DNA of 44,613 bases from Chloroflexota bacterium (GTDB taxonomy: Bacteria; Chloroflexota; Dormibacteria; DASZGP01): positions 1 to 44,613 of the forward strand of contig JAXDLV010000079.1 in NCBI GenBank assembly GCA_034666445.1, in the 5' to 3' direction. Under the pieces are notes generated by a model that had not been told where the DNA came from, did no database searches, and worked only from the letters and a program-made list of their open reading frames with translations. This document shows, one piece after another, positions 2 to 16,079 of the stretch; the first letter of the stretch is position 1; every line of letters starts with the position of its first letter. A program made the position numbers and the translations under genes.

Positions 2-367
2 GTCCACGCCGTCCGCGCCCACCACTACGACGAGCAGCCCGCCACCCTCGAGGCGATGCTCGTCATCGCGGCCGACGCCATCTCGGCTGCGCGGCCCGGG
101 GCCCGCCGGGAGACGCTGAGCAACTACATCAAGCGCCTGGAGCGCCTGGAGACCATCGCCAACTCCTTCCCGGGCGTGGAGCGCTCCTTTGCCGTCCAGG
201 CCGGCCGCGAGATCCGGATCATCGTCAAGCCCGAGGAGATCGACGACGCCACCGCCCAGGTGATCGCGCGCGACATCGTCAAGCGCATCGAGGGCGAGCT
301 CACCTACCCGGGGCAGATCAAGGTGACGGTGATAAGGGAGACCCGCGTCGTGGACTACGCCAAGTGA
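2..367 (+). CDS. rny: Ribonuclease Y, C-terminal fragment (5' end outside window)
   Basis: The frame is open from the window edge. The translation ...[45 protein letters not shown]...[20 protein letters not shown] matches the end of the HD domain and the conserved C-terminus of RNase Y. It is followed by ymdB, as in Bacillus. Confidence 0.9.
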
Positions 368-1167
368 GCGACACCATCAGGGTGCTCGCGGTGGGCGACA
401 TCGTGGGCCGCCCGGGAAGGCACGCGGCCGTGAGGCTGATCCCGCGCCTGCGCCGTGAGCACGACATCGACATGGTCGTCGCCAACGGTGAGAACGCCTC
501 GGGGGGCTTTGGGCTGACGGGGGCCGGGGCACGGGAGCTCTTCAGCGCCGGGGTCGACGTCATCACCAGCGGTAACCACATCTGGGACCAGCGGGAGGTG
601 CTGCCCTCGCTCGATGAGCTGCCCATCCTGCGGCCGATGAACTACCCGGCCGGCACGCCGGGCCGGGGCTGGCTGGTCCACGACCTGGGCGCCAAGGGCT
701 CGGTGGCCGTTGGCAATGTCCAGGGGCTGGTCTTCATGCCCTCAATCGAGTCGCCCTTCCGGACGGTCGACGCCTACCTCGAGGCGGTGAAGGACGTACC
801 TGTGCGGCTCCTCGACCTGCATGCGGAGGCGACCAGCGAGAAGATGGCCATGGGCCACTACGTCGACGGCCGCGTCAGCCTGCTATGGGGTACCCACACC
901 CACGTTCCCACCGCCGACGCGCGGGTGCTGCCTAACGGCACCGCGTACGTGAGCGACCTCGGCATGGTGGGGCCGCGCGACTCGGTCATCGGAATGGAGC
1001 CGGAGGGCTCGCTGGCGCGCCTGCTGACGGGCATCCCGCAGCGTTTCAAGGTCGCCGGGGGCGTGGTGACTTTCAATTCGGTTGTGGTTACAATCAGCGG
1101 CACCTCTGGACGGGCTGAGAGTATCGAGCGCGTGGACCACGTGGTCGACCCCTCACCTTCCGCCTGA
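364..1167 (+). CDS. ymdB: YmdB-family metallophosphoesterase (2',3'-cyclic-nucleotide phosphodiesterase, TIGR00282-like)
   Basis: 267 aa, with a GTGA start/stop overlap with rny. Family motifs present: [41 protein letters not shown]. Conserved rny-ymdB synteny. Confidence 0.9.
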
Positions 1168-1169
1168 CG

Positions 1170-1448
1170 ATGCAGACGATCACCACTTTGGAAATACTCA
1201 AAGTCTCAGCAACATCGAAGCCGGTCGCAGTGGCAGGCGCGATCGCGGGAGTGGTGCGTACCCAGAGCAGGGTGGAGGTGCAGGCGATCGGCGCCGGCGC
1301 CATCAACCAGGCGGTCAAGGCGATCGCGATTTCGCGTGGCTACGTCGCCCCCGGGGGCATCGACCTGGTGTGCATCCCGTCGTTCATCGACATCTCGATC
1401 GACGGCGAGGAGCGCACCGGCATCCGCCTCCTCGTCGAGTCCCGCTAG
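1170..1448 (+). CDS. spoVS: Stage V sporulation protein S family protein
   Basis: 92 aa. LKVSATSKPVAVAGAIAGV...VQAIGAGAINQAVKAIAISRGY...IRLLV is the characteristic SpoVS pattern, in the rny-ymdB-spoVS order. Confidence 0.9.
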   Translation: MQTITTLEILKVSATSKPVAVAGAIAGVVRTQSRVEVQAIGAGAINQAVKAIAISRGYVAPGGIDLVCIPSFIDISIDGEERTGIRLLVESR

Positions 1449-1499
1449 GCCCTCGAGCCGCCGCCTCCGGTCCCGCGCGCGACCGATAAGCTTGCCCCG

Positions 1500-4139
1500 A
1501 TGGGGCAGGGGCTGACAGGAGAGAAGCCGGGGACGAAAGGGTCCGCCAGTCGCGGCAAGCCGCCCCTGAGCCCCGTCCTGGAGCAGTACCTCCGAGCCAA
1601 GGCCGATCACCCGACCGATGTCCTGCTGTTCCGGCTGGGCGACTTCTTCGAAACATTCCAGGAGGACGCCGAGGTCGCCGCGGCGATCCTGGGGATCACG
1701 CTGACGTCGCGGGACTTCGGCCGCGCCGGCCGCCACCCGATGGCCGGCTTCCCGGCGCACGCCGCCGAGGGCTACATCGCCAGGCTCCTGGCGGGCGGCC
1801 GCTCGGTGGCGGTCTGCGACCAGGTGGAGGAGGCGTCGGCGGCAAAGGGCCTGGTGCGGCGCGAGGTCACCCGGGTGCTGACGCCGGGGACGCTCGTCGA
1901 GGGCGCGCTGCTCGACCCCGGCCGGGACAACTCGCTGGTGGCGCTGGCATGGAGCGACACGGCCATTGGCATCGCCCTCCTCGAGGCCTCCACGGGGAGG
2001 ATCGAGCTGACCGAGCTGCCCGCCGACGACCTGCCGCTGCTGGCCGAGGTGCTCGGGCGGATCGCTCCGTCGGAGGTGCTGGTCTCGGATTCCGCCGAGG
2101 CCGCGGTGGCCGCCTGGCGCCCGGTGGGGGCGACCTGGACCCTCACCCGCCTCGACGACTGGCGGTTCGAGAGCGCCCGCGGCCGGATGCGAGCCATGGA
2201 GGTGCTGGGGGTCGCCAGCCTCGGCGGCTTCGACTGCGACGACCTCGAGCCGGCGCTGGGCGCGCTGGGCGCTGCCTTCGACTATCTCCAGCGCAACCAC
2301 CTCACGCTCCCCGGGGAGGTCATCCGGCTGCGGCGGACGCGGGTCGGCGACACGATGCACCTCGACGTGCCAACGGTAATCAACCTTGAGCTGGTGGCCA
2401 CCATGGGCGCCGAGGGACGCGGGCTGCTGGAGCTGGTCGACCGCACCCGCACGCCGATGGGGGCGCGCAGGCTGCGCGCCTGGCTGCTGGCGCCGCTGCT
2501 GGACGCCGGCGCCATCGACCAGCGGCTGGTGGCGGTCGAGGAGCTGGTGGCCGGCGACGGCCTCCGGCAGTCGCTCACCGACGAGGTGCGCCGGGTGCGC
2601 GACCTGGAGCGGTTGACCACGCGCGTCGCCGCGGGCAGGGCGACGCCGCGCGACCTCGGCGCGATCCGCGACTCGCTCCCTTCGCTGGCGCGGTTGACCG
2701 CGCTGCGGGGCGAGGTGAGGGGTGGACGCCTGCGTTCCTTGCTCGCCGCTGTCGAGCCGGAGGATGCGCTGCACGACACCCTGACAAGCGCGCTGGAATC
2801 GGACCTGCCCATCCCCGTGACCGAGGGGGGCATCATCCGCCCCGGTTACGACGCCCGGCTCGACGAGCTGCGGCTGGCGATCAGGGAGGCGCAGGAGTGG
2901 ATCGCGGGGCTGGAGCACACAGAGCGCGAGGCAAGCGGCATCAAGAACCTCAAGGTGGGCTTCAACCGCGTGTTCGGCTATTACCTCGAGGTCAGCAACG
3001 CCAACCGGCTGCCCATCCCGGACGGTTACCTGCGGAAGCAGACGCTGGCCGGCGGGGAGCGGTACATCACACCCGCCCTGAAGGAGAAGGAGAGCGTTGT
3101 GCTCAACGGCGAGCAGGCCATCTTCGCGCGCGAGCGCGAGGTCTTCATGGACCTGTGCGCCGCCGTCGGCCGCCGCGCGTCCTCCCTGCTGGCCACCGCC
3201 GAGGCCGTCGCCGAGCTGGACGCCCTCGTGTCGCTGGCGATGGCCGCCGTCGAGCACGGCTGGACGCGCCCGGAGGTCACCGACGGCTTTGACATCGACA
3301 TCGAGGACGGGCGCCACCCGCTGGTCGAGCGCTCGCTGGGGCCGGGAAACTTCGTGCCCAACGACGCCCACCTCGCGGAGGGCAGCCGGGTGGTGCTGCT
3401 CACGGGCCCGAACATGGCAGGCAAGTCGACCTACCTGCGGCAGACGGCGCTGCTGGTCCTGATGGCGCAGGTCGGCAGCTTCGTGCCCGCCGCGTCGGCA
3501 CGCGTCGGGCTGGTGGACCGGATCTTCACGCGCGTGGGGGCGCAGGACAGCATCGCCGGGGGGCTGTCCACCTTCATGGTCGAGATGGTGGAGACGGCCA
3601 ACATCCTCAACCACGCCAGCCCTCGCAGCCTGCTGGTCATCGACGAGATCGGTCGCGGCACCAGCACCTATGACGGCATGAGCATCGCCCAGGCGGTCGT
3701 GGAGCACATCCACGACGCCCCCGGGCTCGGGTGCAAGACGCTGTTCGCCACCCACTTCCACGAGCTGACGGCGCTGGCGGCGCGACTCCCGGCGCTGCGC
3801 AACTTCCGCGTCGAGGTCAGCGAGGAGGGCGGCAAGGTGACGTTCCTGCACCGCATCGTGCCGGGCGGGGCCGACCGCAGCTACGGCATCCACGTGGCCG
3901 AGATCGCGGGGCTGCCTGCAGGCGTCACCGCACGGGCGCGGGAGGTGCTGGCGTCGCTGGAGGCCGAGGCACCGCCGGGCGAGGTGGTGCCCGCCGGCGA
4001 CCAGCTGAGCCTGCCGATGCCGCTGCCGCACCGGCTCGTGCGCGAGCTGCAGGAGCTCGAGATCGACAAGCTCAGCCCGCTGGAGGCGCTGAACCGACTC
4101 GCGATCCTGAAGCGGATCGGCGCGGAGGCAGGTGCCTGA
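1500..4139 (+). CDS. mutS: DNA mismatch repair protein MutS
   Basis: 879 aa. N-terminal SPVLEQYL...GDFFETF mismatch-binding region, Walker A GPNMAGKST, STFMVEM, DEIGRGTSTYDG. Confidence 0.97.
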   Translation: MGQGLTGEKPGTKGSASRGKPPLSPVLEQYLRAKADHPTDVLLFRLGDFFETFQEDAEVAAAILGITLTSRDFGRAGRHPMAGFPAHAAEGYIARLLAGGRSVAVCDQVEEASAAKGLVRREVTRVLTPGTLVEGALLDPGRDNSLVALAWSDTAIGIALLEASTGRIELTELPADDLPLLAEVLGRIAPSEVLVSDSAEAAVAAWRPVGATWTLTRLDDWRFESARGRMRAMEVLGVASLGGFDCDDLEPALGALGAAFDYLQRNHLTLPGEVIRLRRTRVGDTMHLDVPTVINLELVATMGAEGRGLLELVDRTRTPMGARRLRAWLLAPLLDAGAIDQRLVAVEELVAGDGLRQSLTDEVRRVRDLERLTTRVAAGRATPRDLGAIRDSLPSLARLTALRGEVRGGRLRSLLAAVEPEDALHDTLTSALESDLPIPVTEGGIIRPGYDARLDELRLAIREAQEWIAGLEHTEREASGIKNLKVGFNRVFGYYLEVSNANRLPIPDGYLRKQTLAGGERYITPALKEKESVVLNGEQAIFAREREVFMDLCAAVGRRASSLLATAEAVAELDALVSLAMAAVEHGWTRPEVTDGFDIDIEDGRHPLVERSLGPGNFVPNDAHLAEGSRVVLLTGPNMAGKSTYLRQTALLVLMAQVGSFVPAASARVGLVDRIFTRVGAQDSIAGGLSTFMVEMVETANILNHASPRSLLVIDEIGRGTSTYDGMSIAQAVVEHIHDAPGLGCKTLFATHFHELTALAARLPALRNFRVEVSEEGGKVTFLHRIVPGGADRSYGIHVAEIAGLPAGVTARAREVLASLEAEAPPGEVVPAGDQLSLPMPLPHRLVRELQELEIDKLSPLEALNRLAILKRIGAEAGA

Positions 4140-5937
4140 CGTAGTCACGATCCGGCAACTGGCGCCCGAGGTGGCCGACGCGATTGCCGCCGGCGAGGTG
4201 GTGGAGCGCCCCGCGTCGGTGGTGAAGGAGCTGGTGGAGAACGCCCTCGACGCGGGCGCCCACAGCGTGACGATCGAGGTCGACGGCGCCGGCCAGGGCC
4301 GGGTTGTCGTGGTGGACGACGGGGTGGGCATCCCAGCGCCGGAGCTCGCCCTCGCGCTCACCCGCCACGCCACGTCCAAGCTGGCGTCGATCACGGACCT
4401 GGGCGCGATCGCCACGCTGGGGTTCCGGGGCGAGGCGCTGGCAAGCATCGCGGCGGTGGCACGCGTCGAGCTTCGGAGCACCGTGCCCGGGGCGCCGGAG
4501 GGCGCGGTTGTTCGTGCCGAGCACGGGATTGTCGGTGATGTCGAGGTCGCGCCGCCGCTGGTGGGGACGCGAGTGGAGGTGCTCGGCCTGTTCGAGAACA
4601 CCCCCGCGCGGCGGGCCTTCCTGCGCAAGCCCGCCACCGAGGCCGCCGCGGTGGTCCGCGTCGTCGCGGCCCTGGGGCTCTGCCACCCGGAGGTTGCGTT
4701 CCAGCTGCGCGTCGACGGGCGCCGCGCGCTCGATCTCCGGCGCGAGCAGGACCTCGCCGCGCGCTTCGGTGCCATCCAGCGCGGCGCCGCGGCGCCCCTG
4801 GCGGTGGCGGGTCGCCGCGAGGGTATCGCCGTGTCGGGGCTGGTGGCCGAGCCGGCGGCGCTGCGACGCAGCCGCGAGCACCTCTACCTGGCGGTCAACC
4901 GGCGCCCGGTGGTGAGCCGCTCGCTGGCCTTCGCCGTCGAGCAGGCGTACCGCGGGCTGGTCGAGCCGGGGCACTTCGCCGTCGGCGCGCTGAACCTGGA
5001 GGTGCCCGCCGACACCATTGACATCAACGTTCACCCGACCAAGCGTGAGATCCGCTTCCGCGAGGAGCGGAAGGTCTTCGGGGTGCTCCAGGAGGCGTGC
5101 CTCGCGGCGCTGGCGGGGAGCGCCGCGTACGCCGGGTCAGGCCTGCTGCGGGAGCGCGCGGCAGAGCCGTACGCGCCGCTCGCCGGCGCCCCGGGTCCTG
5201 CTCCCGAGGGGTTCGCGCAGGCGGTCCCGCCGCCCCCGCGGCAGCCCGCCGTAGCGGAGCTGCGCCTGCCCGCCATCGCCGTCGCAGCCAACTCGGCAGA
5301 GACGGGACCGGCGGATGCCCGGATAGCGGATGCCACTCTGGGGGCGGTGCGGCTGCTGCGCGGGCCGTTCCGCCTCGTCGGCCAGGTTCTCGATTCCTAC
5401 ATCGTGGCCGAGGGACCCAGCGGCCTGGTCCTGGTCGACCAGCACGCCGCGCATGAGAGGGTGATGTTCAATCGCCTCGTCGCCGCGCGAGATCGCGGCG
5501 GCCGTGACATCCAGCCGATGCTGGTGCCGCCCGTGCTGCATCTCACCCCCATCCAGGCCGCCTGCCTTGCCGATGTCGCCCCCGACCTCGCCGCCGCTGG
5601 GATCGTCCTCGAGGAGTTCGGTCCTGACGCGGCCCGGCTGCTGGCCCACGAGCCGATGCTGCCCGACCGCGGTCTCGACCGCGTGGTGATCGAGGTCCTG
5701 GACTCGCTGGTCGCGGAGGGCCGCGAGATCGACCACGCGCGCAGGCTGGAGCGGGCGACATACACGGTCGCCTGCCACTCCGCGATCCGTTTCGGGCAGC
5801 GGCTGGCGCGGGAGGAGATGGAGGGGTTGCTGCGCGACCTGGAGGTGGCCGACCCAGGGATCACCTGTCCCCACGGGCGGCCGACGCTGCTGGAGATCGG
5901 CGAGGGCCAGCTGCGGCGGGAGTTCAGGCGCAGCTGA
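4132..5937 (+). CDS. mutL: DNA mismatch repair protein MutL (endonuclease-type)
   Basis: 601 aa, with an 8-nt overlap with mutS. GHKL motifs are present (VVKELVENALDAGA, DDGVGI, GFRGEAL). The C-terminal DQHAAHERVMFNRL motif is typical of MutH-independent MutL. Confidence 0.95.
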   Translation: MPDVVTIRQLAPEVADAIAAGEVVERPASVVKELVENALDAGAHSVTIEVDGAGQGRVVVVDDGVGIPAPELALALTRHATSKLASITDLGAIATLGFRGEALASIAAVARVELRSTVPGAPEGAVVRAEHGIVGDVEVAPPLVGTRVEVLGLFENTPARRAFLRKPATEAAAVVRVVAALGLCHPEVAFQLRVDGRRALDLRREQDLAARFGAIQRGAAAPLAVAGRREGIAVSGLVAEPAALRRSREHLYLAVNRRPVVSRSLAFAVEQAYRGLVEPGHFAVGALNLEVPADTIDINVHPTKREIRFREERKVFGVLQEACLAALAGSAAYAGSGLLRERAAEPYAPLAGAPGPAPEGFAQAVPPPPRQPAVAELRLPAIAVAANSAETGPADARIADATLGAVRLLRGPFRLVGQVLDSYIVAEGPSGLVLVDQHAAHERVMFNRLVAARDRGGRDIQPMLVPPVLHLTPIQAACLADVAPDLAAAGIVLEEFGPDAARLLAHEPMLPDRGLDRVVIEVLDSLVAEGREIDHARRLERATYTVACHSAIRFGQRLAREEMEGLLRDLEVADPGITCPHGRPTLLEIGEGQLRREFRRS

Positions 5938-5975
5938 GCCCGGCGCGGCCGGCCGGCACGGGATCGTCGCCGGCG

Positions 5976-6869
5976 CTGGCGATCATCGGTCCCACCGCGG
6001 CGGGCAAGACCGCGGTGGCCGTGGAGGCGTGCTTGCGGCTCGGCGGCGAGATTGTCTCGGTCGACTCGCGCCAGCTCTACCGCGGCCTGCGGGTGACGAG
6101 CAACGCGCCGACCGACGAGGATCTGAGGGGTATCCCTGCCCACCTGGTGGGGATCGTCGACCCGGGCACCCGCATCAACGTGGCGAGCTTCGTGGCCATG
6201 GCGCGCCCAGTGCTGGACGAGATCCGCGGCCGCGGTCTCACGCCCGTCATCACCGCCGGCACCGGGCTCTACCTCAAGGCGCTTGTCGACGGGCTCGAGC
6301 TGGGCGAACCGCCCCCGCCCGCACCTGTCCGCGCCGCCCTGGAGGCGGAGGCCCTGGCCGACCTTCCCGCGCTGGTTGGACGGCTGCGCGACCTCGACCC
6401 GGCGGCTGCCGACGTGGTCGATGTCGACAACCCGGCGCGGGTGGTGCGACGGATGGAGATGGCCCTGGCGCGCGGGGCCCACGGTCCAGGCGCCCCCGCG
6501 GCCAGCCTCGTCGCCACCATCAAGGTGGGTCTCGCGGTTGACCGCCAGGTGCTGTACCGGCGCATCGAGGCCCGCGCCGACGAGATGCTCTCCGGCGGGT
6601 GGCGCGATGAGGTGGAGGCACTGATCGCGGCCGGCATCGACCCGGGCGCCCAGGCGTTCACCTCGATCGGGCTCGCGGAGCTGGCGGCGGTCGCGCGCGG
6701 TGATATGGCGCTGGCGGACGCCCGGGCGGTGATCGTGCAGCGGACGCGCAATTACGCGAAGCGTCAGATGACATGGTTTCGGGCCGACCCGGGCGTGAGG
6801 TGGATCGACGTGACTGCCCTACCGCTCTCGGATATCGTTGACCGGGTCGTGGCATCGGTTTCGAGTTGA
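5976..6869 (+). CDS. miaA: tRNA dimethylallyltransferase MiaA (start codon uncertain, apparently non-canonical)
   Basis: LAIIGPTAAGKTAVAVE...VSVDSRQLYRGL... is the MiaA N-terminus. The Walker A motif (5988-6011) lies upstream of the first ATG/GTG/TTG in this frame (GTG 6015). The frame is open back past 5650. Candidate starts are CTG 5976, CTG 5934 and ATC 5982. Confidence 0.85.
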   Translation: MAIIGPTAAGKTAVAVEACLRLGGEIVSVDSRQLYRGLRVTSNAPTDEDLRGIPAHLVGIVDPGTRINVASFVAMARPVLDEIRGRGLTPVITAGTGLYLKALVDGLELGEPPPPAPVRAALEAEALADLPALVGRLRDLDPAAADVVDVDNPARVVRRMEMALARGAHGPGAPAASLVATIKVGLAVDRQVLYRRIEARADEMLSGGWRDEVEALIAAGIDPGAQAFTSIGLAELAAVARGDMALADARAVIVQRTRNYAKRQMTWFRADPGVRWIDVTALPLSDIVDRVVASVSS

Positions 6870-7723
6870 GGTTCCACAAGCTCCACGGGGCTTCCAACGA
6901 CTTCGTGGTGGTCGACGGCCGTGTGGCCGCCGATGCCGCCGCGGCGGGCGGTGGCGACGAGGCGCGCTGGGCGACGCTGGCCGTCGCGCTCTGCGATCGC
7001 CGGCGCGGCGTGGGTGCCGACGGGCTGCTGGTCCTCGAGGACAGCACCGCACAGGACTTCCGCATGCGCTACCACAACGCCGATGGCAGCACCGCGGAGA
7101 TGTGCGGGAACGGCATCAGGTGCCTGGCCAAGTTCGCCCTCGACACCGGTGTCACAGACCAGCGCGCCCTGAGGTGGGAGACCCTCGCCGGCCCGATCGC
7201 CACCGAGGTCCTGGCCCACGACGGGGCGTCTGCGCTGGTCCGCGTGGACATGGGCCCGCCGCGCTTCGCCCCGGCCGACATCCCGGTGGAGGCCGAGGGC
7301 AGCGATGTTCGGGAGACGCCATTCGACGTCGCCGGCGAGGCCATCACCCTCACGTGTGTGAGCATGGGCAACCCGCACGCGGTGACGTTCGTGGACAGCG
7401 TCGACGGCTATGAGCTCGCCCGCATAGGGCCCGCCGTCGAGCGCCACGCGCGGTTCCCCGAGCGCACCAACTTCGAGGTCGTGGAGGTCCTCGGCCCGGC
7501 CCACCTGCGGATGCGGGTCTGGGAACGCGGGGTGGGGGAGACGATGGCCTGCGGCACCGGCGCCTGTGCCGTCGCCGTCGCCGCCCGGCTGGTCCGCGAC
7601 GCCGGCCCCGAGGTCGATGTGGACGTGCCCGGCGGACGGCTCCATGTCGGCTGGGACGAGGGTGGCCCCGTGATGCTCACGGGTCCCGCCGAGACGGCGT
7701 TCACCGGTGACTTCGCGGGTTGA
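6866..7723 (+). CDS. dapF: Diaminopimelate epimerase
   Basis: 285 aa, with a TTGA overlap with miaA. NDFVVVD, the first catalytic Cys in CGNGIRC and the second in MACGTGACA. Confidence 0.93.
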   Translation: MRFHKLHGASNDFVVVDGRVAADAAAAGGGDEARWATLAVALCDRRRGVGADGLLVLEDSTAQDFRMRYHNADGSTAEMCGNGIRCLAKFALDTGVTDQRALRWETLAGPIATEVLAHDGASALVRVDMGPPRFAPADIPVEAEGSDVRETPFDVAGEAITLTCVSMGNPHAVTFVDSVDGYELARIGPAVERHARFPERTNFEVVEVLGPAHLRMRVWERGVGETMACGTGACAVAVAARLVRDAGPEVDVDVPGGRLHVGWDEGGPVMLTGPAETAFTGDFAG

Positions 7724-8895
7724 CGCGGCTGTCTGAGGGCCTCGCCGCGCGGCGGATGTCGCGCATCCCCCCGTACCTGTTCGCGGAGATCGACCGGAAG
7801 GTGGCGGCCAAGCGCGCAGAGGGTGTCGATGTCATCGCGCTGGACATCGGCGACCCCGACACCCCGACGCCCGCGCACATCGTGGAGGCCGCGCGCCTCG
7901 CGCTGGCCGACGGCGCCAACCATCGCTACGCCTCGTACTACGGCATGCCCGCCCTCCGCGACGCCGTCGCCGGCTGGTACCGCGGCCGGTTCGGGGTGGA
8001 ACTCGACCCCGCCACCGCAATCCTGCCCACCCTGGGCTCCAAGGACGGCATCTCGCACCTGCCCTTCGCATTGGTCGACCCCGGCGACGTGGTCCTGGTG
8101 CCCAGCCCCGGCTACCCGGTCTACCTGACAGGCACGGTGATGGCCGACGGCGAGCCCCACCTGCTCCCGTTGACCGCCGCCAACGCTTGGCTGCCAGACC
8201 TCGACGCGATCCCGGCGGACGTCGCCACGCGGGCACGGATCCTGTGGCTGAACTACCCCAACAACCCTACGGCGGCGACCGCGCCGATCGAGTTCTACCG
8301 GTCGGCGGTCGAGTTCTGCCGCCGCCACGACATCGTCCTCTGCCACGACTTCCCCTACTCGGAGATCGCGTTCCGGGGCTATCGCGCCCCGTCCGTGCTG
8401 GAGGTGGAGGGTGCCGCCGACGTCGCCGTCGAGTTCCACTCGCTGTCCAAGACGTTCAACATGACCGGCTGGCGGGTCGGCATGGCGGTGGGCAACGCGG
8501 AGGTGATCCGCCTCCTCGGCCAGGTCAAGACCAACATCGACTCCGGGATCTTCCCGGTGGTCCAGCACGCCGCCATAGCGGCGCTGACCGGCCCTCCCAA
8601 CGACGCGCTCAACACCGAGTACGAGGCGCGGCAGGCGCGGGCCCTTGCGGTGTTCGCGGAGCTGGGCTGGAGTGACCAGCGGCCCCCGGACGCCACCTTC
8701 TATCTATGGCTGCCCGTACCGGACGGGTTCACGTCCGTGTCGTTCGCCACCCACGTCCTCGACGAGGCCGCGGTGAACCTGACCCCGGGCAACGGCTTCG
8801 GCGAGCATGGCGAGGGCTACTTCCGGGTGTCGCTCACCGTCCCCGACGACCGATTCGACGAGGCCCTAGAACGGCTACGCGGCCTGAAGCTGTAG
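7720..8895 (+). CDS. dapL: LL-diaminopimelate aminotransferase-type class I aminotransferase
   Basis: 391 aa, with a TTGA overlap with dapF. RIPPYLFAEIDRKVAAKRAEGVDVIALDIGDPDTPTP resembles the short DapL (TIGR03540-like) family. The PLP lysine context is SLSKTFNMTGWR. Confidence 0.8.
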   Translation: MTRLSEGLAARRMSRIPPYLFAEIDRKVAAKRAEGVDVIALDIGDPDTPTPAHIVEAARLALADGANHRYASYYGMPALRDAVAGWYRGRFGVELDPATAILPTLGSKDGISHLPFALVDPGDVVLVPSPGYPVYLTGTVMADGEPHLLPLTAANAWLPDLDAIPADVATRARILWLNYPNNPTAATAPIEFYRSAVEFCRRHDIVLCHDFPYSEIAFRGYRAPSVLEVEGAADVAVEFHSLSKTFNMTGWRVGMAVGNAEVIRLLGQVKTNIDSGIFPVVQHAAIAALTGPPNDALNTEYEARQARALAVFAELGWSDQRPPDATFYLWLPVPDGFTSVSFATHVLDEAAVNLTPGNGFGEHGEGYFRVSLTVPDDRFDEALERLRGLKL

Positions 8896-8920
8896 CCCGC
8901 CGGCCGGGCGGCCGCCACTG

Positions 8921-10216
8921 ATGCCGCGCCTCGACGAGTTCGTCTTTGCGCCCGACCAGGAGGCCGAGAAGGTCTACCTCCTGGGGCTCGGCCTGCCGGG
9001 GGTCAGCAACGAGAAGCTGGAGGAGGAGATGAGCGAGCTTGGCGAGCTTGCCGTCACCGCCGGGGCGGAGGTGGTCGGCGCCGACGTGCAGCACCTCGAC
9101 CGGCCCAACCCGCTGACCTGCTACGGCAAGGGCAAGGTCGAGGAGCTGAAGAGCCTCAAGTCGGACCTGGGCTTCACCACCGTCGTGACCAACGACGACC
9201 TGGCGCCGCGGCAGCAGCGCAACCTCGAGGACATCCTCGACATGAAGGTGCTGGACCGCACCGAGGTGATCCTCGACATCTTCGCCCGCCACGCGCGGAG
9301 CCACGAGGGCCGCCTCCAGGTGGAGGCCGCCCAGCTGCGACACCTGCTGCCGCGCCTGGCCGGGGGTCGCAAGCTGTCCCGCCTCGGTGGCGGCATCGGC
9401 ACCCGCGGTCCCGGCGAGCAGAAGCTGGAGGTCGACCGCCGCCGGATCCGCAACCGCATCAGCGAGCTGGGCCGCGACCTGACCAAGATGCAGAAGTCCC
9501 GCCGCCTCCACCGCCAGGCCCGCGTCCGCAACCAGGTGCCCGTGGTCGCGGTGGTGGGCTACACCAACGCGGGCAAGAGCACGCTGCTGAACGCCCTCAC
9601 CGGCGCGGGCGTGCTGGAGGCCGACCAGGTCTTCGCCACACTCGATCCCACCACCCGCGCCGTCGACCTGCCGGACGGCCGGAAGGTCCTGCTCACCGAC
9701 ACTGTCGGGTTCATCCAGAAGCTGCCCACCGACCTCGTGGCGGCCTTCAAGGCGACGCTGGAGGAGGTGACTGAGGCCAACGTCCTGGTGCACGTCCTGG
9801 ACGCGTCCCACCCCGCGATGCGGGCCCATTTCGCGGCCACCAACGAGGTGCTGGACCAGCTCGAGGCGCTCGACAAGCCGATGGTGCTTGCCCTCAACAA
9901 GGTCGACCTCCTCGACCCGGGCACAGTGGCCATGATGCAGCGCCGCGGCGACTGGGCGCCGTACGACGAGGTGGTGCCGGTGTCGGCGAGGACGGGCAAG
10001 GGGATGGACCGGCTCCTGGCCGCCATCGAGCGGCTGACCCGCGACGGCCTGGTGCAGCTCGACCTGCTGCTGCCCTACGACCAGGCGGGCTTGGAGTCAG
10101 AGGTGCTGAAGCGCGGCCGCGTACTGAAGCGGGAGTACCTCAATGAGGGCACCCACCTGGTGGCCGAGGTGCCCTCTAGCGATGCGCCCCGCTTCCGGGA
10201 CTTCGTTCGAAGCTAA
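8921..10216 (+). CDS. hflX: GTPase HflX
   Basis: 431 aa. HflX N-terminal domain followed by a G domain (GYTNAGKSTLLNALT, DTVGF, NKVD). Confidence 0.93.
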   Translation: MPRLDEFVFAPDQEAEKVYLLGLGLPGVSNEKLEEEMSELGELAVTAGAEVVGADVQHLDRPNPLTCYGKGKVEELKSLKSDLGFTTVVTNDDLAPRQQRNLEDILDMKVLDRTEVILDIFARHARSHEGRLQVEAAQLRHLLPRLAGGRKLSRLGGGIGTRGPGEQKLEVDRRRIRNRISELGRDLTKMQKSRRLHRQARVRNQVPVVAVVGYTNAGKSTLLNALTGAGVLEADQVFATLDPTTRAVDLPDGRKVLLTDTVGFIQKLPTDLVAAFKATLEEVTEANVLVHVLDASHPAMRAHFAATNEVLDQLEALDKPMVLALNKVDLLDPGTVAMMQRRGDWAPYDEVVPVSARTGKGMDRLLAAIERLTRDGLVQLDLLLPYDQAGLESEVLKRGRVLKREYLNEGTHLVAEVPSSDAPRFRDFVRS

Positions 10217-10219
10217 GGC

Positions 10220-10867
10220 CTACAGGCCGCGCGGGTTGACGCGGACGACGCCGACGACCAGGCCCTCGATGTTGAGGTCGCTGACCCGGATCGGCTGGTG
10301 CTTGGCATTGGCGGGCTCGAGGCGGAAGCCGCCGGCCTCGCGATAGAAACGCTTCACGGTGGCCTCTGACTCACCCGTCTCGGGGTTCTGGATCCGCGCC
10401 ACGACGACGGCGCCGTTGGAGGGCTCGCCGCCGGGCTTGACCGCGACGAGGTCGCCGTCAAGGATGCCGTCATCGATCATGCTGTCGCCGCGCACGCGCA
10501 GGAGGAAGGAGTTGTCCCCGAACAGGCCGCCCGACATCTCGACCCGGTCCTCGACGTTGGCCTCGGCCAGGATCGGCGTACCGGCGGCGACCGAGCCGAT
10601 GATCGGCAGGGCCACGATCCGCCCGTACTGGTCGCCGGCGCCGCTGGTGTCCTTCTCGACCATCTCGATGGCGCGGGACTTGGAGGGGTCGCGCTTGATG
10701 TAGCCCTTCCGCTCCAGCGTGTTGAGGTGGTTCTGGACGGTGGAGCTCGAGCTGAGCCCGATGGCCAGGCCGATCTCACGAACGGTGGGAGGGTAGGCCT
10801 TCTCGCGCAGCATCTGCTTGAGGTAGTCGAGGATCTCTCGCTGGCGCTGGGTCAGGACCTCTGGCAT
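10220..10867 (-). CDS. lexA: LexA repressor
   Basis: 215 aa from ATG 10867 (MPEVLTQRQREILDYL...). Winged-HTH N-terminus, cleavage site VAAG, S24 peptidase residues (RVRGDSM ... VKRF). The longer track ORF (to 11371) runs through the ferredoxin gene and is not credible. Confidence 0.95.
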   Translation of the reverse strand: MPEVLTQRQREILDYLKQMLREKAYPPTVREIGLAIGLSSSSTVQNHLNTLERKGYIKRDPSKSRAIEMVEKDTSGAGDQYGRIVALPIIGSVAAGTPILAEANVEDRVEMSGGLFGDNSFLLRVRGDSMIDDGILDGDLVAVKPGGEPSNGAVVVARIQNPETGESEATVKRFYREAGGFRLEPANAKHQPIRVSDLNIEGLVVGVVRVNPRGL

Positions 10868-10928
10868 TAGCTTCCTCCGCTTGTCGGGCGGCCGGGGCGT
10901 CCCGGACCCCCTCGTGAGTGGTGAATCG

Positions 10929-10968
10929 AAACTAGCACATCTGTTTGCGTATTGCAAACGCATGTTCG
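10929..10968 (-). promoter_or_regulatory. Putative lexA promoter with overlapping one-mismatch SOS box
   Basis: The minus strand reads CGAACATGCGTTTG (10955-10968; GAAC-N4-GTTT). It overlaps TTGCAA (10952-10957), followed by a 17-nt spacer and TAGTTT (10929-10934), about 60 nt upstream of the lexA ATG. Confidence 0.55.
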
Positions 10969-11053
10969 GGGCGAGATTTCGGTCTTCGCCGAGGCTCGCC
11001 TTGTATACAATTGCCACCGTACTGACCGTCCACCCACAAGGAGTGACGCACCG

Positions 11054-11311
11054 ATGACTTATGTAATCGCCGAACCCTGCATCGGTACCAAGGACAAGTC
11101 CTGCGTCGACGTCTGCCCGGTGGACTGCATCCACGGCGCCGACGAAGACCAGATGCTCTTCATCAACCCGGAGGAGTGCATCGACTGCGGCGCCTGCGAG
11201 CCGGCCTGCCCGGTGACCGCGATCTTCGTGGACTACGACGTCCCAGAGCAGTGGAAGGCGTACACCGAGCTGAACGCCGACTACTTCAAGACCGGCCGCA
11301 ACACCCTCTGA
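11054..11311 (+). CDS. 7Fe ferredoxin ([3Fe-4S][4Fe-4S], FdxA-type)
   Basis: 85 aa from ATG 11054, preceded by AAGGAG. MTYVIAEPCIGTKDKSCVDVCPVDCI (Cx7Cx3CP) plus CIDCGACEPACP. Confidence 0.92.
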   Translation: MTYVIAEPCIGTKDKSCVDVCPVDCIHGADEDQMLFINPEECIDCGACEPACPVTAIFVDYDVPEQWKAYTELNADYFKTGRNTL

Positions 11312-11363
11312 CCGGCGCCCCGGGGAACGGGGAGATGAGGGACCCGGCGATGTCTCACCAGGC

Positions 11364-12770
11364 ATGAGCACGCGCGTCGAAAAGGACTCGATGGGCGAGC
11401 TGCCCGTACCCGCCGCCGCGTACTACGGCGCCCAGACCCAGCGCGCCGTGCTCAACTTCCCGATCAGCGGGCTCACCATGCCCGAGGGCCTGGTTCGCGC
11501 CGGGGCTCGCATCAAGGCGGCCGCCGCGGAGGTCAACCTGGAGCTGGGGCTGCTCGAGCCTGAGGTCGCCGAGGCGGTGACCGCCGCGGCAAGGGAGGTC
11601 GCGGAGGGCGGGCTGGCCGACCAGTTCCCCATCGACGTCTACCAGACCGGCTCGGGGACGTCGACCAACATGAACCTCAACGAGGTCATCGCCAACCGCG
11701 CCACCGAGGTGCTCGGCGGCGAGCGCGGCAGCAAGCTGGTCCACCCGAACGACCACGTCAACATGGGGCAGTCCAGCAATGACGTCATTCCCACCGCGAT
11801 CCACGTCGCCGCCCTGGTCGCGATCGAGACGGAGCTGGTGCCGGCGCTGGAGCACCTCCGCGACGAACTGGAGAAAAAGGCGGTCGAGTTCTGGGACGTC
11901 ATCAAGACCGGTCGCACCCATCTCCAGGACGCCACCCCCATCCGCCTGGGGCAAGAGTTCCGCGGCTGGGCCGGCCAGGCGCAGCTGGGCGTGACCCGCC
12001 TCCGCGCGGCCCAGGCCGAGCTCGGCGCGGTGGCGCTCGGCGGCACCGCGGTGGGCACCGGCGTCAACACCCACCCGGAGTTCGCCGCACGGGTGTGCGC
12101 CCGGCTGTCGAAGGAGCTGGGCGTGGACGTGCGCGAGACCGAGAACCACTTCCAGGCGCAGTCCAGCCTCGACGGCGTCGTGGCCACCTCGGGTGCGCTT
12201 CGGACCGTCGCCGTCAGCCTCTACAAGATCGCCAACGACATCCGCTGGCTGGGGTCGGGGCCTCGCGCCGGCCTCGGCGAGCTGTCGATCCCGGCGGTCC
12301 AGCCGGGGAGCTCGATCATGCCGGGGAAGGTCAACCCCGTCATCTCGGAGTCGACCACGATGGTCGTCGCCCAGGTGGTCGGCAACGACGCGGCCGTCGC
12401 CTTCGCCGGCGCCGCAGGTTCGATCTTCGAGCTGAACCTGATGATGCCGGTGGCAGCCCACAACCTGCTCTCGTCGATCCACCTGCTCGCCGCCGCGGCC
12501 CGCAACCTCGCCGACCAGTGCGTCACCGGCATCGAGCAGACGGGCCACGGCCCCGAGATGGTGGAGCGAGGGCTCATGCTGGCCACCGCCCTCGCCCCGG
12601 CCATCGGGTACGACGCGGCCGCCGACCTGGCCAAGACCGCCTTCAAGGAGGGCAAGACGATCCGCGAGCTGGCGCGGGAGAAGACCGACCTCTCCGATGC
12701 GCAGCTGGACGAGTTGCTGGACCCGGCGCGTATGACGGAGCCGGGCGCCAGCGGTCCCGGCGGAGGCTAG
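11364..12770 (+). CDS. fumC: Class II fumarate hydratase
   Basis: 468 aa with the GSSIMPGKVNP signature. EKDSMGELPVPAAAYYGAQTQRA, QTGSGTSTNMNLNEVIANRA and HPNDHVNMGQSSNDVIPTA resemble FumC more than aspartase. Confidence 0.85.
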   Translation: MSTRVEKDSMGELPVPAAAYYGAQTQRAVLNFPISGLTMPEGLVRAGARIKAAAAEVNLELGLLEPEVAEAVTAAAREVAEGGLADQFPIDVYQTGSGTSTNMNLNEVIANRATEVLGGERGSKLVHPNDHVNMGQSSNDVIPTAIHVAALVAIETELVPALEHLRDELEKKAVEFWDVIKTGRTHLQDATPIRLGQEFRGWAGQAQLGVTRLRAAQAELGAVALGGTAVGTGVNTHPEFAARVCARLSKELGVDVRETENHFQAQSSLDGVVATSGALRTVAVSLYKIANDIRWLGSGPRAGLGELSIPAVQPGSSIMPGKVNPVISESTTMVVAQVVGNDAAVAFAGAAGSIFELNLMMPVAAHNLLSSIHLLAAAARNLADQCVTGIEQTGHGPEMVERGLMLATALAPAIGYDAAADLAKTAFKEGKTIRELAREKTDLSDAQLDELLDPARMTEPGASGPGGG

Positions 12771-12780
12771 CCCCTAACCG

Positions 12781-14055
12781 TCAACGGTTGGCGCAGGTCT
12801 CCGTGTAGGCGCCGCTCAGCGGCGTCGCGTGGGCGTTGCCCGCCTTCAACGCGGGGAGGTTGCCGAAGGCGACCGTGTCGTTGCCGTCGGCGCCGAGGTT
12901 GATCTTCACCACCGAGCCGCCGTTGCTGGCCCACGACTGGGACTGCTTCGACGTCTCGCCGCCGGGGGCGACGAGGTCGATGGTGACCGTCGAGTTGGTC
13001 TGGTCATACGAGCCCGGGCCGGAGGGGTGCTTGACCTTGATCGTGGCGGCGCCCTCGGGCAGCTGGAACGTGGCCGTCAGGCCGGTGCTGTTCTTGGCGA
13101 GCGCCGTGCAGTTGGGCGAGGTGCTCTCGGTGCCGGACGACGTCTTGGGGGAGGGGGTGATCCCCGCCAGCGTGAGGGTGTTGGTGTAACGGGTGCCGGG
13201 ACCGGACAGGGTGCTGGTCGCCCCGCCGCTGCTGATGGCGGGCTTGGCGAGGGGGCTGAAGGCCGCGAAGACGCCCGCGCCGCCCAGGAGAATCGGCACG
13301 ATGATGATCGCGCCCACGATCCAGGCGATCATCCGGCCGGTGCGGGCGACGGTCTCCATCACCGGCATCACGGTCCCGAGCTGGATGTCCGACAGCCGGG
13401 TGAACTGGGCGTAGGGGTTCTGCACCGGCTGGGTTCGCACCAGCACCCAGTCGTACTGACCGCTGGTGACGGCCGCCTGGCAGTAGCTGCACGCGCCACT
13501 CTCGTTGAGGTTGAGGGGCGCGCCGCAGTTGGGGCACTTGTCCGCCATGGCGCCGGCGCCCACCACTGTGACCGCCCCGGCCGAGCGCTGGAAGCTCCAG
13601 TCCTGGGCCTCGCCGCCGCCCTGGGGGGTGAAGCGGACCACGATGGTGTCGTAGGAGGGGTCGGTGTGGGCTGCGGCGATGGCCGCGGTCGCGTTCAGCG
13701 GGACGGGGACGGCCGCGCCGCCACGCTGGGCGGCGAGGATCGCATCGCGATGCTGCAGCCACATGGTGTCGGCCATGACCTGCCGGCTCATCGCCGGCTG
13801 CCCCGTCTGGATGGCCTGCTGCACGAGGTGGTAGGCCCACTCGGCGCGGGACAGGAAGCGGGTCTCGTCGAAGCCGGGGTCGTGCGCGGTGATGTCCGCG
13901 AGCGCCTTCTGCGGCGGCTCCAGCTGGGCCTGGACGTCGGTGCCGGCCATCAGGGTCCCGAACTGCACCTGGATCGCCTGCGCCATGTACTGGTTGTAGT
14001 CGGGCGCCTGGCCGGGACCGGGGCTCGGGCCAGCGCCGGAGCTGAATCTGGGCAA
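12781..14055 (-). CDS. Membrane protein: Tim44-like domain + zinc ribbon + TM + Cys-containing extracytoplasmic domain
   Basis: Tim44-like pattern: DETRFLSRAEWAYHLVQQAIQTG...VVRFTPQGGGEAQDWSFQR. Zinc ribbon CPNCGAPLNLNESGACSYCQ and TM helix MIAWIVGAIIIVPILLGGAGVFAAF. The TTG start at 14055 has GGAAGGAGG 5 nt upstream. The alternative ATG 14091 lacks an SD. Confidence 0.8.
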   Translation of the reverse strand: MPRFSSGAGPSPGPGQAPDYNQYMAQAIQVQFGTLMAGTDVQAQLEPPQKALADITAHDPGFDETRFLSRAEWAYHLVQQAIQTGQPAMSRQVMADTMWLQHRDAILAAQRGGAAVPVPLNATAAIAAAHTDPSYDTIVVRFTPQGGGEAQDWSFQRSAGAVTVVGAGAMADKCPNCGAPLNLNESGACSYCQAAVTSGQYDWVLVRTQPVQNPYAQFTRLSDIQLGTVMPVMETVARTGRMIAWIVGAIIIVPILLGGAGVFAAFSPLAKPAISSGGATSTLSGPGTRYTNTLTLAGITPSPKTSSGTESTSPNCTALAKNSTGLTATFQLPEGAATIKVKHPSGPGSYDQTNSTVTIDLVAPGGETSKQSQSWASNGGSVVKINLGADGNDTVAFGNLPALKAGNAHATPLSGAYTETCANR

Positions 14056-14099
14056 GCTGTCCTCCTTCCTCGTCTGGGTGAGGTGGATCATCCCTTAAC

Positions 14100-14143
14100 T
14101 TGACACGAACAGGCGTTCGTGCATAATGGCGAACATGAGTTCG
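14100..14143 (+). promoter_or_regulatory. Near-consensus sigma-70-type promoter with two perfect LexA (Cheo/SOS) boxes
   Basis: TTGACA (14100-14105), a 16-nt spacer, CATAAT (14122-14127). Box 1 CGAACAGGCGTTCG (14106-14119) fills the spacer. Box 2 CGAACATGAGTTCG (14130-14143) covers the predicted +1 and ATG 14135. Confidence 0.8.
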
Positions 14144-14467
14144 TATGCCGACGTCCACCAGGGATACCGCCGATCGCGCTACTACGCGCCGCGGGTGCCC
14201 CGAAGGAAGGCAGCCCGCATCAAGGTCGGGCGGATCGTGGTGGTCGTCGGGATACTGTGCGCCGCGTTCACCCAGGTGGCCTATGGGGGAGGGCGGACGG
14301 GTACCGAGAGGGTCACCGTCAGGCCCGGCGAGACGGTGTGGAGCATCGCCTCCGAGCGCTACCCCGAGGACGACACCCGGGCCCGCGTGAGCGACATCGT
14401 GCGCCTCAACAACCTCGGCGACGGGCCCATCCACTCGGGCGACGAGTTGGAGGTTCCGGCCGGCTAG
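14135..14467 (+). CDS. Small TM + LysM protein, YneA/ChiZ-like candidate SOS cell-division inhibitor (probably leaderless; alternative in-frame ATG 14126)
   Basis: About 110 aa. Basic N-terminus, TM helix IVVVVGILCAAFTQVAY, C-terminal LysM (VTVRPGETVWSIASERY...IVRLNNL...IHSGDELEVP). There is no SD. ATG 14135 lies 7 nt after the -10. Confidence 0.85.
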   Translation: MSSYADVHQGYRRSRYYAPRVPRRKAARIKVGRIVVVVGILCAAFTQVAYGGGRTGTERVTVRPGETVWSIASERYPEDDTRARVSDIVRLNNLGDGPIHSGDELEVPAG

Positions 14468-14501
14468 ACTCGCCGGCCAGGTGCCGAATTCAACTCGGCA
14501 C
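14458..14501 (+). terminator. Two tandem 7-bp-stem hairpins at the end of the LysM gene (weak intrinsic terminator candidates, no U-tract)
   Basis: GGCCGGC-TAGACTC-GCCGGCC (14458-14478; the loop contains the stop codon) and GTGCCGA-ATTCAAC-TCGGCAC (14481-14501). Confidence 0.3.
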
Positions 14502-14657
14502 TCGCGTTAGGCCCCCCACAGGTGCTACAACTACTTCCTCAACGTCATATTTGGCATGACGGACACCCGGTGCGGGCCGGGCGGGAGGTTCTAGAAGCTT
14601 GAGTCGGCGGGAATGCGAAGAGCGGTCGGTGCGCGAGCGCGATAGGGGGGGCGAAGC

Positions 14658-16079
14658 ATGAAGCAGTCTGTACGCGACAAGGTCGCCGTCGCGTTCATTA
14701 CGCTATCGGTCGCGTTCTCGGGCCTGATGGCCGTCCTCGTTGTGAGCGCGTACAACTCGAACAAGCGACCGGTGGCGGTTGCAGGCGGAGACACCGGCGC
14801 GCTTCCCGCTGATGCCGGGGGCGCCGACCAGGTGACAACCAGTGGCGGGTCCGCGGGTGGTAACAGCGGCGGTGGTGGCGGTGGTGCCGTGGCGAAGGCG
14901 GGCAAGCTCGCCACGTCGCAGGCTGAATCGGGCGTCACCGGTGACACCATCACGGTGGGTGGGATCTTCGATGAGACCAACGCGGTGGACTCCTCGGTTG
15001 AGCGCGACACCGTCAGGGCGTACTTCAACAAGGTCAATGCAGCCGGTGGCATCAATGGCCGCAAGCTCCAGATGATCCAGTGCGACTCCCAGTACGACGC
15101 GGTCGTGACCCGCCGATGTGCCTCGCAGATGGTCGACGCGCACGTCCTCTCGATCGTGGGCTGGACGGCGCCGAAGGGCGAGAACGAGCAGGTCCCGTAC
15201 TTCACACAGCAGGGCATCCCCATGATCGGTGGCCTGGGTACGCCGGATGAGTACAACTCGCCCCTCTCGTACCCGGTCTCCACGCCGTTCACCCGCTACG
15301 GGGAGGGTCTTGCGGCCCGCGCCGCAGAGCTGGGCATCAAGCACCCGGCAATCGTCGCGATCTACGACGTGCCGTGGGTCAAGCCGGTGATCAAGGCGCT
15401 CCAGGATGCCCTTCACGCCAAGGGCATCCAGGAGACGCACATCGACCAGGCCAGCGCCACGCAGCAGAGCTACGACCAGGACGTCCTGGCACTCGAGCAC
15501 CAGAACGACCTCGGGCCGTGTGCCAACCAGCCGCCGGACCCCTGCCCCGACGCTCTTCTCCCGGCGCTCGACCCGTTCAGCTATTCGCGGCTCTTCCAGG
15601 CAATGGACCGTGCCGGCTGGCACACCAAGATCATTGGCGGTGGACTGGACAAGGGCAGCTCCCAATCCGGCTACCACGACCAGATCGAGAACGCCAACTC
15701 GCTGGTGCCGTTCCTTTCTCCCTACGACAACCCGAACAACCCCACCGTCAAGGACTACCTCAGCACGGTCCAGCTGTACTACCCCGGGCAGTTCCAGGCG
15801 CTGGACATCTACACCCAGCATTCGTGGACCGCGGCGATGGTGTTTGTCGAGGCGCTGAAGCGCGCCGGCAAGGACGTGACTCGAGCGTCGTTGGTCGACG
15901 CCCTCAACACGATCAAGAACTTCGACACCGGGTGGTCCAAACCGCTCTCCTACAAGGCGGAGGATCACCACGATCCCAACCACTGCTTTACGTGGACGCA
16001 CCACGACGAGAAGGACGCCGACCACGGCGGCACCTGGCACACAATCTCGGACTGGCAGTGCTTCGACCCGCCGTTCTAG
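14658..16079 (+). CDS. ABC transporter substrate-binding protein, LivJ/LivK-like (membrane-anchored)
   Basis: 473 aa. N-terminal TM anchor (VAFITLSVAFSGLMAVLVVSAY), a Gly-rich linker, then a type-I periplasmic-binding-fold-like sequence. It is the first gene of the permease/ATPase operon. Confidence 0.8.
   Translation: MKQSVRDKVAVAFITLSVAFSGLMAVLVVSAYNSNKRPVAVAGGDTGALPADAGGADQVTTSGGSAGGNSGGGGGGAVAKAGKLATSQAESGVTGDTITVGGIFDETNAVDSSVERDTVRAYFNKVNAAGGINGRKLQMIQCDSQYDAVVTRRCASQMVDAHVLSIVGWTAPKGENEQVPYFTQQGIPMIGGLGTPDEYNSPLSYPVSTPFTRYGEGLAARAAELGIKHPAIVAIYDVPWVKPVIKALQDALHAKGIQETHIDQASATQQSYDQDVLALEHQNDLGPCANQPPDPCPDALLPALDPFSYSRLFQAMDRAGWHTKIIGGGLDKGSSQSGYHDQIENANSLVPFLSPYDNPNNPTVKDYLSTVQLYYPGQFQALDIYTQHSWTAAMVFVEALKRAGKDVTRASLVDALNTIKNFDTGWSKPLSYKAEDHHDPNHCFTWTHHDEKDADHGGTWHTISDWQCFDPPF

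Follow-up and report, generated by a model that had tools for sequence, protein, structure and literature searches.

The window analyzed here, a stretch of 44,613 nucleotides from a Chloroflexota bacterium to which all coordinates refer, contains a short gene for a membrane protein with one transmembrane (TM) helix and, at its C-terminus, a LysM domain (called the LysM gene below and numbered from its own start, ATG 14135), and two palindromes resembling LexA boxes lie directly in front of it. Does this gene belong to the SOS response, and if so, does its product hold back cell division? The exact 113-aa product of the open reading frame (ORF) is on record from a metagenome-assembled genome (MAG) labelled "Chloroflexota bacterium", and 63 homologues of 106-115 aa (54-89% identity) were found, nearly all of those with a taxon name coming from Candidatus Dormibacteraeota/Dormibacteria or "Chloroflexota" MAGs; the source of the window is a MAG of Candidatus Dormibacterota, an uncultured soil bacterium. 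We consider the gene to be, more probably than not, an SOS-controlled gene of the YneA/ChiZ type by which Candidatus Dormibacterota would pause division. Taken separately, its regulation by LexA is very likely judging from the DNA, and inhibition of division by its product is, by analogy, probable to a clearly lesser degree.

Positions 14100-14143 read TTGACA CGAACAGGCGTTCG TG CATAAT GG CGAACATGAGTTCG. In the promoter scan, the -35 hexamer TTGACA (14100..14105, plus strand) and the -10 hexamer CATAAT (14122..14127, plus strand) were separated by a spacer of 16 nt and matched the consensus at 11 of 12 positions, and this LysM-gene promoter was the sole sigma-70-like match between 10000 and 15000 (shuffled sequences gave 0.3). 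LexA box 1, CGAACAGGCGTTCG (14106..14119, no strand assigned), is a perfect Cheo-type palindrome within the spacer, and LexA box 2, CGAACATGAGTTCG (14130..14143, no strand assigned), covers the predicted transcription start, the start codon and codons 2 and 3; start to start, the boxes are 24 bp apart. An earlier reading of this DNA (the original prediction) had described this near-consensus promoter at 14100-14127, with one box in the spacer and another 24 bp downstream over ATG 14135, and all of it was recovered at these coordinates. The motif equals the SOS box of the B. subtilis and M. tuberculosis type, TCGAAC-N4-GTTCGA (PMC3381160).

Perfect GAAC-N4-GTTC sites occur twice in the 44.6 kb, both times in the LysM-gene promoter (shuffle mean 0.38), and from base composition the full 14-mer CGAAC-N4-GTTCG should turn up 0.043 times per window, and as a pair within 40 bp about 2e-6 times. 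The original prediction had named these two as the only sites found by eye apart from a one-mismatch site at lexA. As the only perfect sites they were confirmed; one-mismatch 14-mers were found not only at lexA (10955-10968) but also, missed by that reading, at 32029-32042 and 44033-44046, near the 5' ends of ORFs for a SpoIID-like protein and an S11 D-Ala-D-Ala carboxypeptidase and inside the coding sequence. Since these two sites are intragenic, they were set aside as probable chance matches. Both genes that hold them code for cell-wall enzymes.

The original prediction had proposed a survey of orthologs for the box pair. We compared the window with 13 orthologous loci, eight from a scan of species-representative genomes (L001-L008) and five added by exact-protein look-ups (L017-L021), and in 14 of 14 loci found the promoter together with both operators and an ATG in box 2. 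Each has TTGACN, 0-2 nt, CGAAC-N4-GTTCG, a 9-11-nt segment with a -10-like hexamer and an identical box 2, with the ATG 6-7 nt past the -10 hexamer; each contains exactly two perfect boxes, both in the LysM-gene promoter. In an alignment of nine loci (A2), the invariant columns were concentrated in TTGAC, the arms of box 1 and the whole of box 2, and the upstream flank was almost entirely unconserved. Across the 14 loci the arms of box 1 are invariant and its central N4 varies, with a purine always first and a pyrimidine always last, which lengthens the palindrome as in the Cheo-box consensus of B. subtilis. The codons within box 2 are ATG AGT TCG, for Met-Ser-Ser. AGT accounts for only 3 of 211 serine codons (1.4%) in nine confidently called genes of the window and yet is codon 2 in all 14 orthologues; because this rare codon is fixed, the three codons appear to be dictated by the operator and not by the protein, indicating a constraint at the DNA level. 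The promoter, both operators and the placing of the start codon inside the second are thereby seen in the sequence and in its conservation.

The presumed cognate repressor is encoded nearby: lexA lies at 10220..10867 on the minus strand, with the Pfam domains LexA_DNA_bind and Peptidase_S24, and its product has the Ala-Gly cleavage site, the serine of GDSM and the lysine of VKRF. The motif scan placed its operator, CGAACATGCGTTTG, at 10955..10968 (minus strand), with one mismatch and overlapping a putative -35 hexamer TTGCAA. A one-mismatch box CGAAC-N4-GTTTG stands at this position in 10 of 10 genomes, in seven with the exact sequence. A degenerate second site with three mismatches, CAAACAGATGTGCT, lies in the spacer of the lexA promoter (10934..10947, minus strand); a related site is present in all ten genomes, as GCAAACAnnTGTGCTA in nine and as AGAACATATGTGCTA in L008. 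A self-cleaving S24-type LexA with a helix-turn-helix and a similar motif at its own promoter is thus present, as is expected of a LexA regulon. Two imperfect sites at lexA and two perfect ones at the LysM gene suggest graded derepression, and the LysM gene would be among the last to be derepressed because both its operators are perfect and those of lexA are not. Going by general knowledge of the SOS response, this fits early derepression of lexA and late, tightly controlled expression of the LysM gene, whose product is potentially toxic. For Streptomyces, a gradation of LexA affinities is on record (PMC9380542).

How is the gene linked to lexA? The starts of the two genes are 3,268 bp apart in the window, as the original prediction had it (3.2 kb); fdx, fumC and a Tim44-like gene intervene. 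Its description of the gene as unlinked from lexA was overstated: the order hflX, lexA (opposite strand), fdx, fumC, a variable slot, the LysM gene and a liv-type ABC transporter operon was the same in all 13 loci, the window included, that were long enough for synteny to be judged. The slot is empty in nine of them (L001-L008 and L017), where the LysM gene is about 2 kb from lexA. L018 has in it a 656-aa protein without any Pfam domain (2968-4938), L019 a SpoU-type methyltransferase (4141-4962), and both the window and L021 a Tim44-like gene encoded on the opposite strand (48% identity between the two). By gene order, the LysM gene is a displaced yet syntenic member of the lexA neighbourhood. 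The module of promoter and boxes stays with it whatever lies upstream, be it fumC, the Tim44-like gene, the SpoU methylase or the 656-aa protein, and since it always stands immediately before the LysM gene, it is on this evidence the control region of the LysM gene and not of the Tim44-like gene that diverges from it. Control of the latter by the boxes was considered and rejected: 11 of 13 relatives lack the Tim44-like gene, and the module is always present.

The Tim44-like gene of the window (12781-14091, minus strand; homologue in L021 at 3616-4908) would encode 436 aa with a zinc ribbon and a TM segment. Because its first ATG (14091) is only 9 nt from the -35 hexamer of the LysM gene and the two Tim44-like N-termini are unalignable before residue 41 (window) and residue 33 (L021), its true start is probably further in.

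In other phyla, a TM+LysM gene related to this one directly adjoins lexA and diverges from it in Demequina, two Acidimicrobiaceae MAGs, another Actinomycetes MAG and a Negativicutes MAG, and the layout of -35, box, -10 and box recurs in relatives from Acidimicrobiia, Solirubrobacterales and Negativicutes. The Solirubrobacterales locus (L015) reads TTGACG-box-TACACT-box, with the ATG inside box 2 and 7 nt past the -10 hexamer. In the window, positions 364-10867 carry ymdB, mutS, mutL, miaA, dapF, an aminotransferase gene and hflX in this order, followed by lexA on the opposite strand. The succession miaA-dapF-hflX...lexA resembles the actinobacterial region that holds chiZ, as in M. tuberculosis; in Demequina (L010), hflX likewise lies upstream of lexA-LysM. 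This likeness of neighbourhoods fits positional orthology of the LysM gene. The synteny rule described for Gram-positive SOS division inhibitors (PMC6851548) likewise speaks for a gene of this type.

The coding sequence (14135..14467, plus strand) specifies a 110-aa bitopic LysM protein, and its frame is kept in 14 of 14 loci. Residues 1-34 (14135..14236, plus strand) form an Arg-rich tail with 10 Lys and Arg against one Asp or Glu, predicted to be cytoplasmic; low AlphaFold2 confidence for residues 1-20 (predicted local distance difference test score, pLDDT, 52-55) indicates that its N-terminal part may be disordered. In the family alignment, R12, R13 and Y16 are invariant and R15, P19, R24 and R28 nearly so. 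Residues 34-50, IVVVVGILCAAFTQVAY (14234..14284, plus strand), form the predicted TM helix, with a score of 2.27 for the best 17-residue Kyte-Doolittle window; AlphaFold2 modelled a helix over residues 23-50 (pLDDT 92 for residues 31-40). The juxtamembrane motif AYGGGRTGT follows directly, with Y50, G51, G52, R54 and G56 invariant. The LysM domain, residues 57-108 (14303..14458, plus strand), was identified by Pfam, AlphaFold2, Foldseek and hhalign alike: PF01476 matched residues 61-108 with 29 bits against a cut-off of 20.9, the model showed the beta-alpha-alpha-beta order of the LysM fold (strand 57-61, helices 68-75 and 81-91, strand 104-108; pLDDT 85-90), and the top-ranked Foldseek matches in the PDB were LysM domains or LysM-containing proteins. 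By the positive-inside rule, the domain would lie outside the cell (N-in/C-out). A single N-terminal TM helix followed by a C-terminal LysM domain is the plan of the YneA/ChiZ-type inhibitors, in agreement with the original prediction; Pfam, AlphaFold2, Foldseek and hydropathy concur on it.

Does this plan make the protein a division inhibitor? Its sole NCBIfam match was NF010723, "cell division suppressor protein YneA" (E 5e-9, 36 bits), which spans residues 36-109, that is, TM helix and LysM domain, and profile positions 9-86 of 87. Four of five further proteins scanned, from Demequina, Solirubrobacterales, Negativicutes and the more distant Dormibacterota homologue L009, behaved likewise; for the Acidimicrobiaceae protein L011 no NCBIfam family matched. 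In hhalign, the family aligned to LysM proteins of other phyla, mostly encoded next to lexA, with 99.2% probability, and a LysM signature is common to them across phyla: V.PG[EQ]TVWSIA...D.R..V..I...N.L....AG..L.(V/L)P. The sequence and fold searches of the PDB returned generic LysM domains and no ChiZ or YneA entry, and the cross-phylum profile search gave only hypothetical, generic LysM or mis-labelled (YgaU, FimV) proteins and no bona fide YneA or ChiZ.

Several observations weigh against an SOS gene of the YneA/ChiZ type. The 36 bits fall below the 60-bit equivalog cut-off of the YneA family, the hhalign alignment covers the LysM domain with the TM helix unaligned, so that homology of the latter is not demonstrable, and LysM proteins have many other roles in the envelope. 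At the position of the LysM GDT motif, matched by position and not by alignment to YneA, the window has G65-E66-T67 and the family G-(Q/E)-(T/S), i.e. the Gly never varies, the Thr is retained in most members and the Asp gives way to Glu or Gln. D46, T47 and I81 are the toxicity residues of YneA, and D46A and T47A abolish its peptidoglycan binding and toxicity (PMC13396833). The gene here neither adjoins lexA nor is its divergent neighbour. The -10 sequence is only loosely conserved among the 14 loci, and no paper on SOS or LexA in Dormibacterota came up among the top-ranked results of a literature search.

The alternative that survives best is a damage-induced, LexA-repressed membrane protein that binds peptidoglycan and serves the envelope otherwise, for instance by remodelling the wall, as an anchor or by protecting the cell during filamentation or dormancy. 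The missed YneA cut-off, the restriction of demonstrable cross-phylum homology to the LysM domain and the replaced Asp speak for it, as do the RRxRY tail and the AYGGGRTGT hinge, which were not found in the aligned relatives from other phyla; even of ChiZ it is said that the precise role has yet to be settled (PMC7355643). Against this, all characterized LexA-controlled TM+LysM mini-proteins encoded near lexA (YneA of Bacillus and Listeria, ChiZ) inhibit division (PMC6851548, PMC3989709), very tight control by a double operator is expected for a toxic product, and the sole NCBIfam match is to YneA over both TM helix and LysM domain. We regard such another envelope role as unlikely, if the most serious of the alternatives.

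A more doubtful possibility, to which we give little weight, combines the same observations differently. The operator pair, the promoter and the start codon might form a self-contained leaderless SOS cassette, ancient in Terrabacteria because the same geometry is seen in the Solirubrobacterales MAG, that travels with the gene as it drifts from lexA; a protein with an invariant cytoplasmic RRxRY(Y/H)xP tail and an AYGGGRTGT hinge and lacking the peptidoglycan-binding Asp of YneA might then hit another target, or act through its tail as proposed for ChiZ, and not by the FtsW/LysM block of YneA.

Where do transcription and translation start? ATG 14135 lies inside box 2 and 7 nt (GGCGAAC) past the -10 hexamer, and no Shine-Dalgarno sequence was found ahead of either in-frame ATG (14126 or 14135). 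ATG 14126, the -9 start, overlaps the -10 hexamer and yields the annotated 113-aa form. The geometry on which the original prediction had based a leaderless mRNA was thus borne out, and a leaderless transcript beginning at A14135 is the best-supported reading. The ATG of the box is present in 14 of 14 loci and an in-frame ATG or GTG at -9 in six; the short spacing from the -10 hexamer and the lack of a Shine-Dalgarno sequence are common to all 14, whereas lexA in ten genomes has a leader of 70-100 nt with a GGAGGA Shine-Dalgarno sequence. Because lexA is preceded by this element in the same genomes, these organisms appear to use Shine-Dalgarno-led initiation where it is needed, and its absence from the LysM gene seems meaningful. 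The frame from the box ATG to the conserved body is kept in all loci despite indels of multiples of three, giving ORFs of 110-112 aa; in L018, the gene caller took a downstream ATG, and four codons ahead of this the box ATG stands in the same frame. In L009, -35, box, -10 and box are kept, box 2 has one mismatch, and GGAG occurs within a leader of about 30 nt; because of this leader the leaderless form would belong to the orthologue clade and not to the whole family. Public gene calls disagree on the start, which is placed variously at the -9 ATG, at the box ATG or at an ATG further downstream (P0036, P0062 and entries of 113 to 115 aa). The comparative data favour the box ATG throughout, and many database entries are probably mis-started by three to four codons.

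With regulation as proposed, the mRNA might still have its 5' end further upstream, either through read-through out of fumC or the slot gene or because some other promoter is used, and be translated from ATG 14126 or 14135 within a leader. In the relatives, only about 40-70 nt separate the end of the upstream gene from the ATG, an intrinsic terminator scan of 10000-15000 gave no match, the -9 start does occur in six loci and L009 has its leader, all of which would suit such an mRNA. But the -9 start is missing from 8 of the 14 loci that all keep the box ATG, neither ATG has a Shine-Dalgarno sequence in genomes that place GGAGGA before lexA, and the -10 hexamer keeps its fixed 6-7 nt to the ATG, with the same geometry in the Solirubrobacterales locus; we therefore hold a leadered mRNA to be improbable. 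That the palindromes are chance matches or the sites of another regulator is the least credible reading and very improbable, for although coding constraint at the start codon partly explains the invariance of box 2, such pairs are hardly expected from base composition, the arms are invariant around a variable N4 in 14 genomes, the same motif with mismatches precedes lexA in ten, the motif equals the SOS box TCGAAC-N4-GTTCGA (PMC3381160) and the rare AGT codon is fixed.

For the preferred reading, an SOS-controlled inhibitor of the YneA/ChiZ type, the following course of events is proposed. In the undamaged cell, LexA dimers would occupy both operators, one in the spacer between -35 and -10 and one over the transcription start, which would coincide with the start codon, so that binding of RNA polymerase and initiation would both be blocked. 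DNA damage would activate RecA and lead to self-cleavage of LexA, upon which a transcript with its 5' end on the A of ATG 14135, or beside it, would be made and translated without a leader. The 110-aa product would insert N-in/C-out, with its disordered tail inside, the TM helix, the short AYGGGRTGT hinge and the LysM domain outside. By analogy to YneA, the TM helix may dock on the septal peptidoglycan synthase FtsW and the LysM domain may bind nascent glycan, stalling septum synthesis until repair is complete. YneA blocks septal peptidoglycan synthesis through FtsW, which its TM helix targets, and does so without disrupting the Z ring; AlphaFold 3 models predict the same mode for ChiZ (PMC13396833). 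The contact reported for the TM helix is with TM7 of FtsW, the LysM domain lying over the glycosyltransferase cavity; ChiZ has FtsI and FtsQ as binding partners. The loss of the FtsZ ring that the original prediction had given as a phenotype is accordingly not what work on YneA leads one to expect, namely a block of septal peptidoglycan synthesis with the Z ring kept. LexA binding, induction by damage, a leaderless 5' end and inhibition of division are in this scheme what we infer from the sequence.

Past the stop codon, RNA folding gave an 8-bp hairpin (14480..14502, plus strand), a possible terminator lacking a U-tract for which the evidence is weak; its sequence was not conserved in the relatives. 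A palindromic element at about 14584-14602, GGTTCTAGAAGC, lies upstream of the substrate-binding gene of the liv-type ABC transporter (14658-16079). The relatives have GTTTCTGCTAGAAA or a close variant, about 60-75 nt past the LysM stop codon in L003-L007, and the element is a candidate operator for some regulator; the 190-nt intergenic region that contains it had no Rfam family match. The Rfam scan of the whole window found one tRNA (38175-38248, minus strand) and nothing near the LysM locus. A tyrosine recombinase of the XerC/D type, with Phage_integrase and SAM-like N-terminal domains, is encoded at 28558-29565. For neither the recombinase nor the tRNA was a link to the LysM gene seen.

If the reading is right, the checkpoint module of LexA-controlled TM+LysM type, familiar from Bacillota and Actinomycetota, reaches an uncultured candidate phylum, and its extension to Dormibacterota would support an old origin in Terrabacteria. 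The motif CGAAC-N4-GTTCG, perfect here and imperfect at lexA, offers a first high-confidence anchor for the SOS regulon of Dormibacterota. The locus also shows cleanly how a repressor site can at the same time be coding sequence, here of a gene that is probably leaderless, and this helps in the annotation of start codons.

Among known systems, SosA of S. aureus, DivS of C. glutamicum, SidA and DidA of Caulobacter and SulA of E. coli are likewise division inhibitors induced by damage, and SosA, DivS and SidA are small membrane proteins acting late in division (PMC6851548, PMC13396833). In contrast to the protein described here, all of these are without a LysM domain and without sequence relationship to it, and SulA is cytoplasmic and targets FtsZ. 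The TM+LysM genes of Actinomycetota and Negativicutes (L010-L015) are closer: they have the same LysM signature and, in Acidimicrobiia, Solirubrobacterales and Negativicutes, the same promoter layout, but L010-L014 are directly divergent from lexA, and their N-terminal tails and TM segments could not be aligned.

YneA of B. subtilis and Listeria is alike in being a small bitopic protein with an N-terminal TM helix and an extracellular C-terminal LysM domain, encoded in the neighbourhood of lexA with Cheo-type LexA boxes over its promoter. The protein from the window differs in its Arg-rich cytoplasmic tail of 34 residues and in having G(E/Q)T for the GDT of YneA, and its gene differs in being set 2-3.3 kb from lexA across fdx-fumC, not as the divergent neighbour, and in its probably leaderless mRNA with the start codon within the operator. 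A search of the window for the RecA-NDp pattern TGTCRGTG-N8-TANNNT gave no match, even with one mismatch allowed; in this lack of a RecA-NDp-type promoter motif the window differs from ChiZ (Rv2719c) of M. tuberculosis, most of whose induction comes from a promoter independent of RecA (PMC3381160). In ChiZ, a disordered Arg-rich tail (residues 1-64) is followed by one TM helix (65-86), a linker and, at the C-terminus, a LysM domain (113-165) (PMC7355643), an order of parts that the protein here shares at smaller dimensions: 110 against 165 aa, a tail of 34 against 64 residues and a linker of about 6 against 26. Both genes have several SOS boxes, two perfect ones here against three with 2-3 mismatches in Rv2719c (PMC3381160), and the gene here is not adjacent to lexA. 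The double operator, from which the original prediction had drawn very tight repression, is thus not special, since multiple operators are usual for this class and the same layout is found in other phyla. In its overall plan the protein resembles ChiZ more than YneA, as a compact version of it. The gene is a member of the already known class of LexA-controlled TM+LysM proteins and reveals no new mechanism; to this class it adds two modest twists, its displacement from lexA by fdx-fumC and a variable slot, and an operator that doubles as its first three codons.

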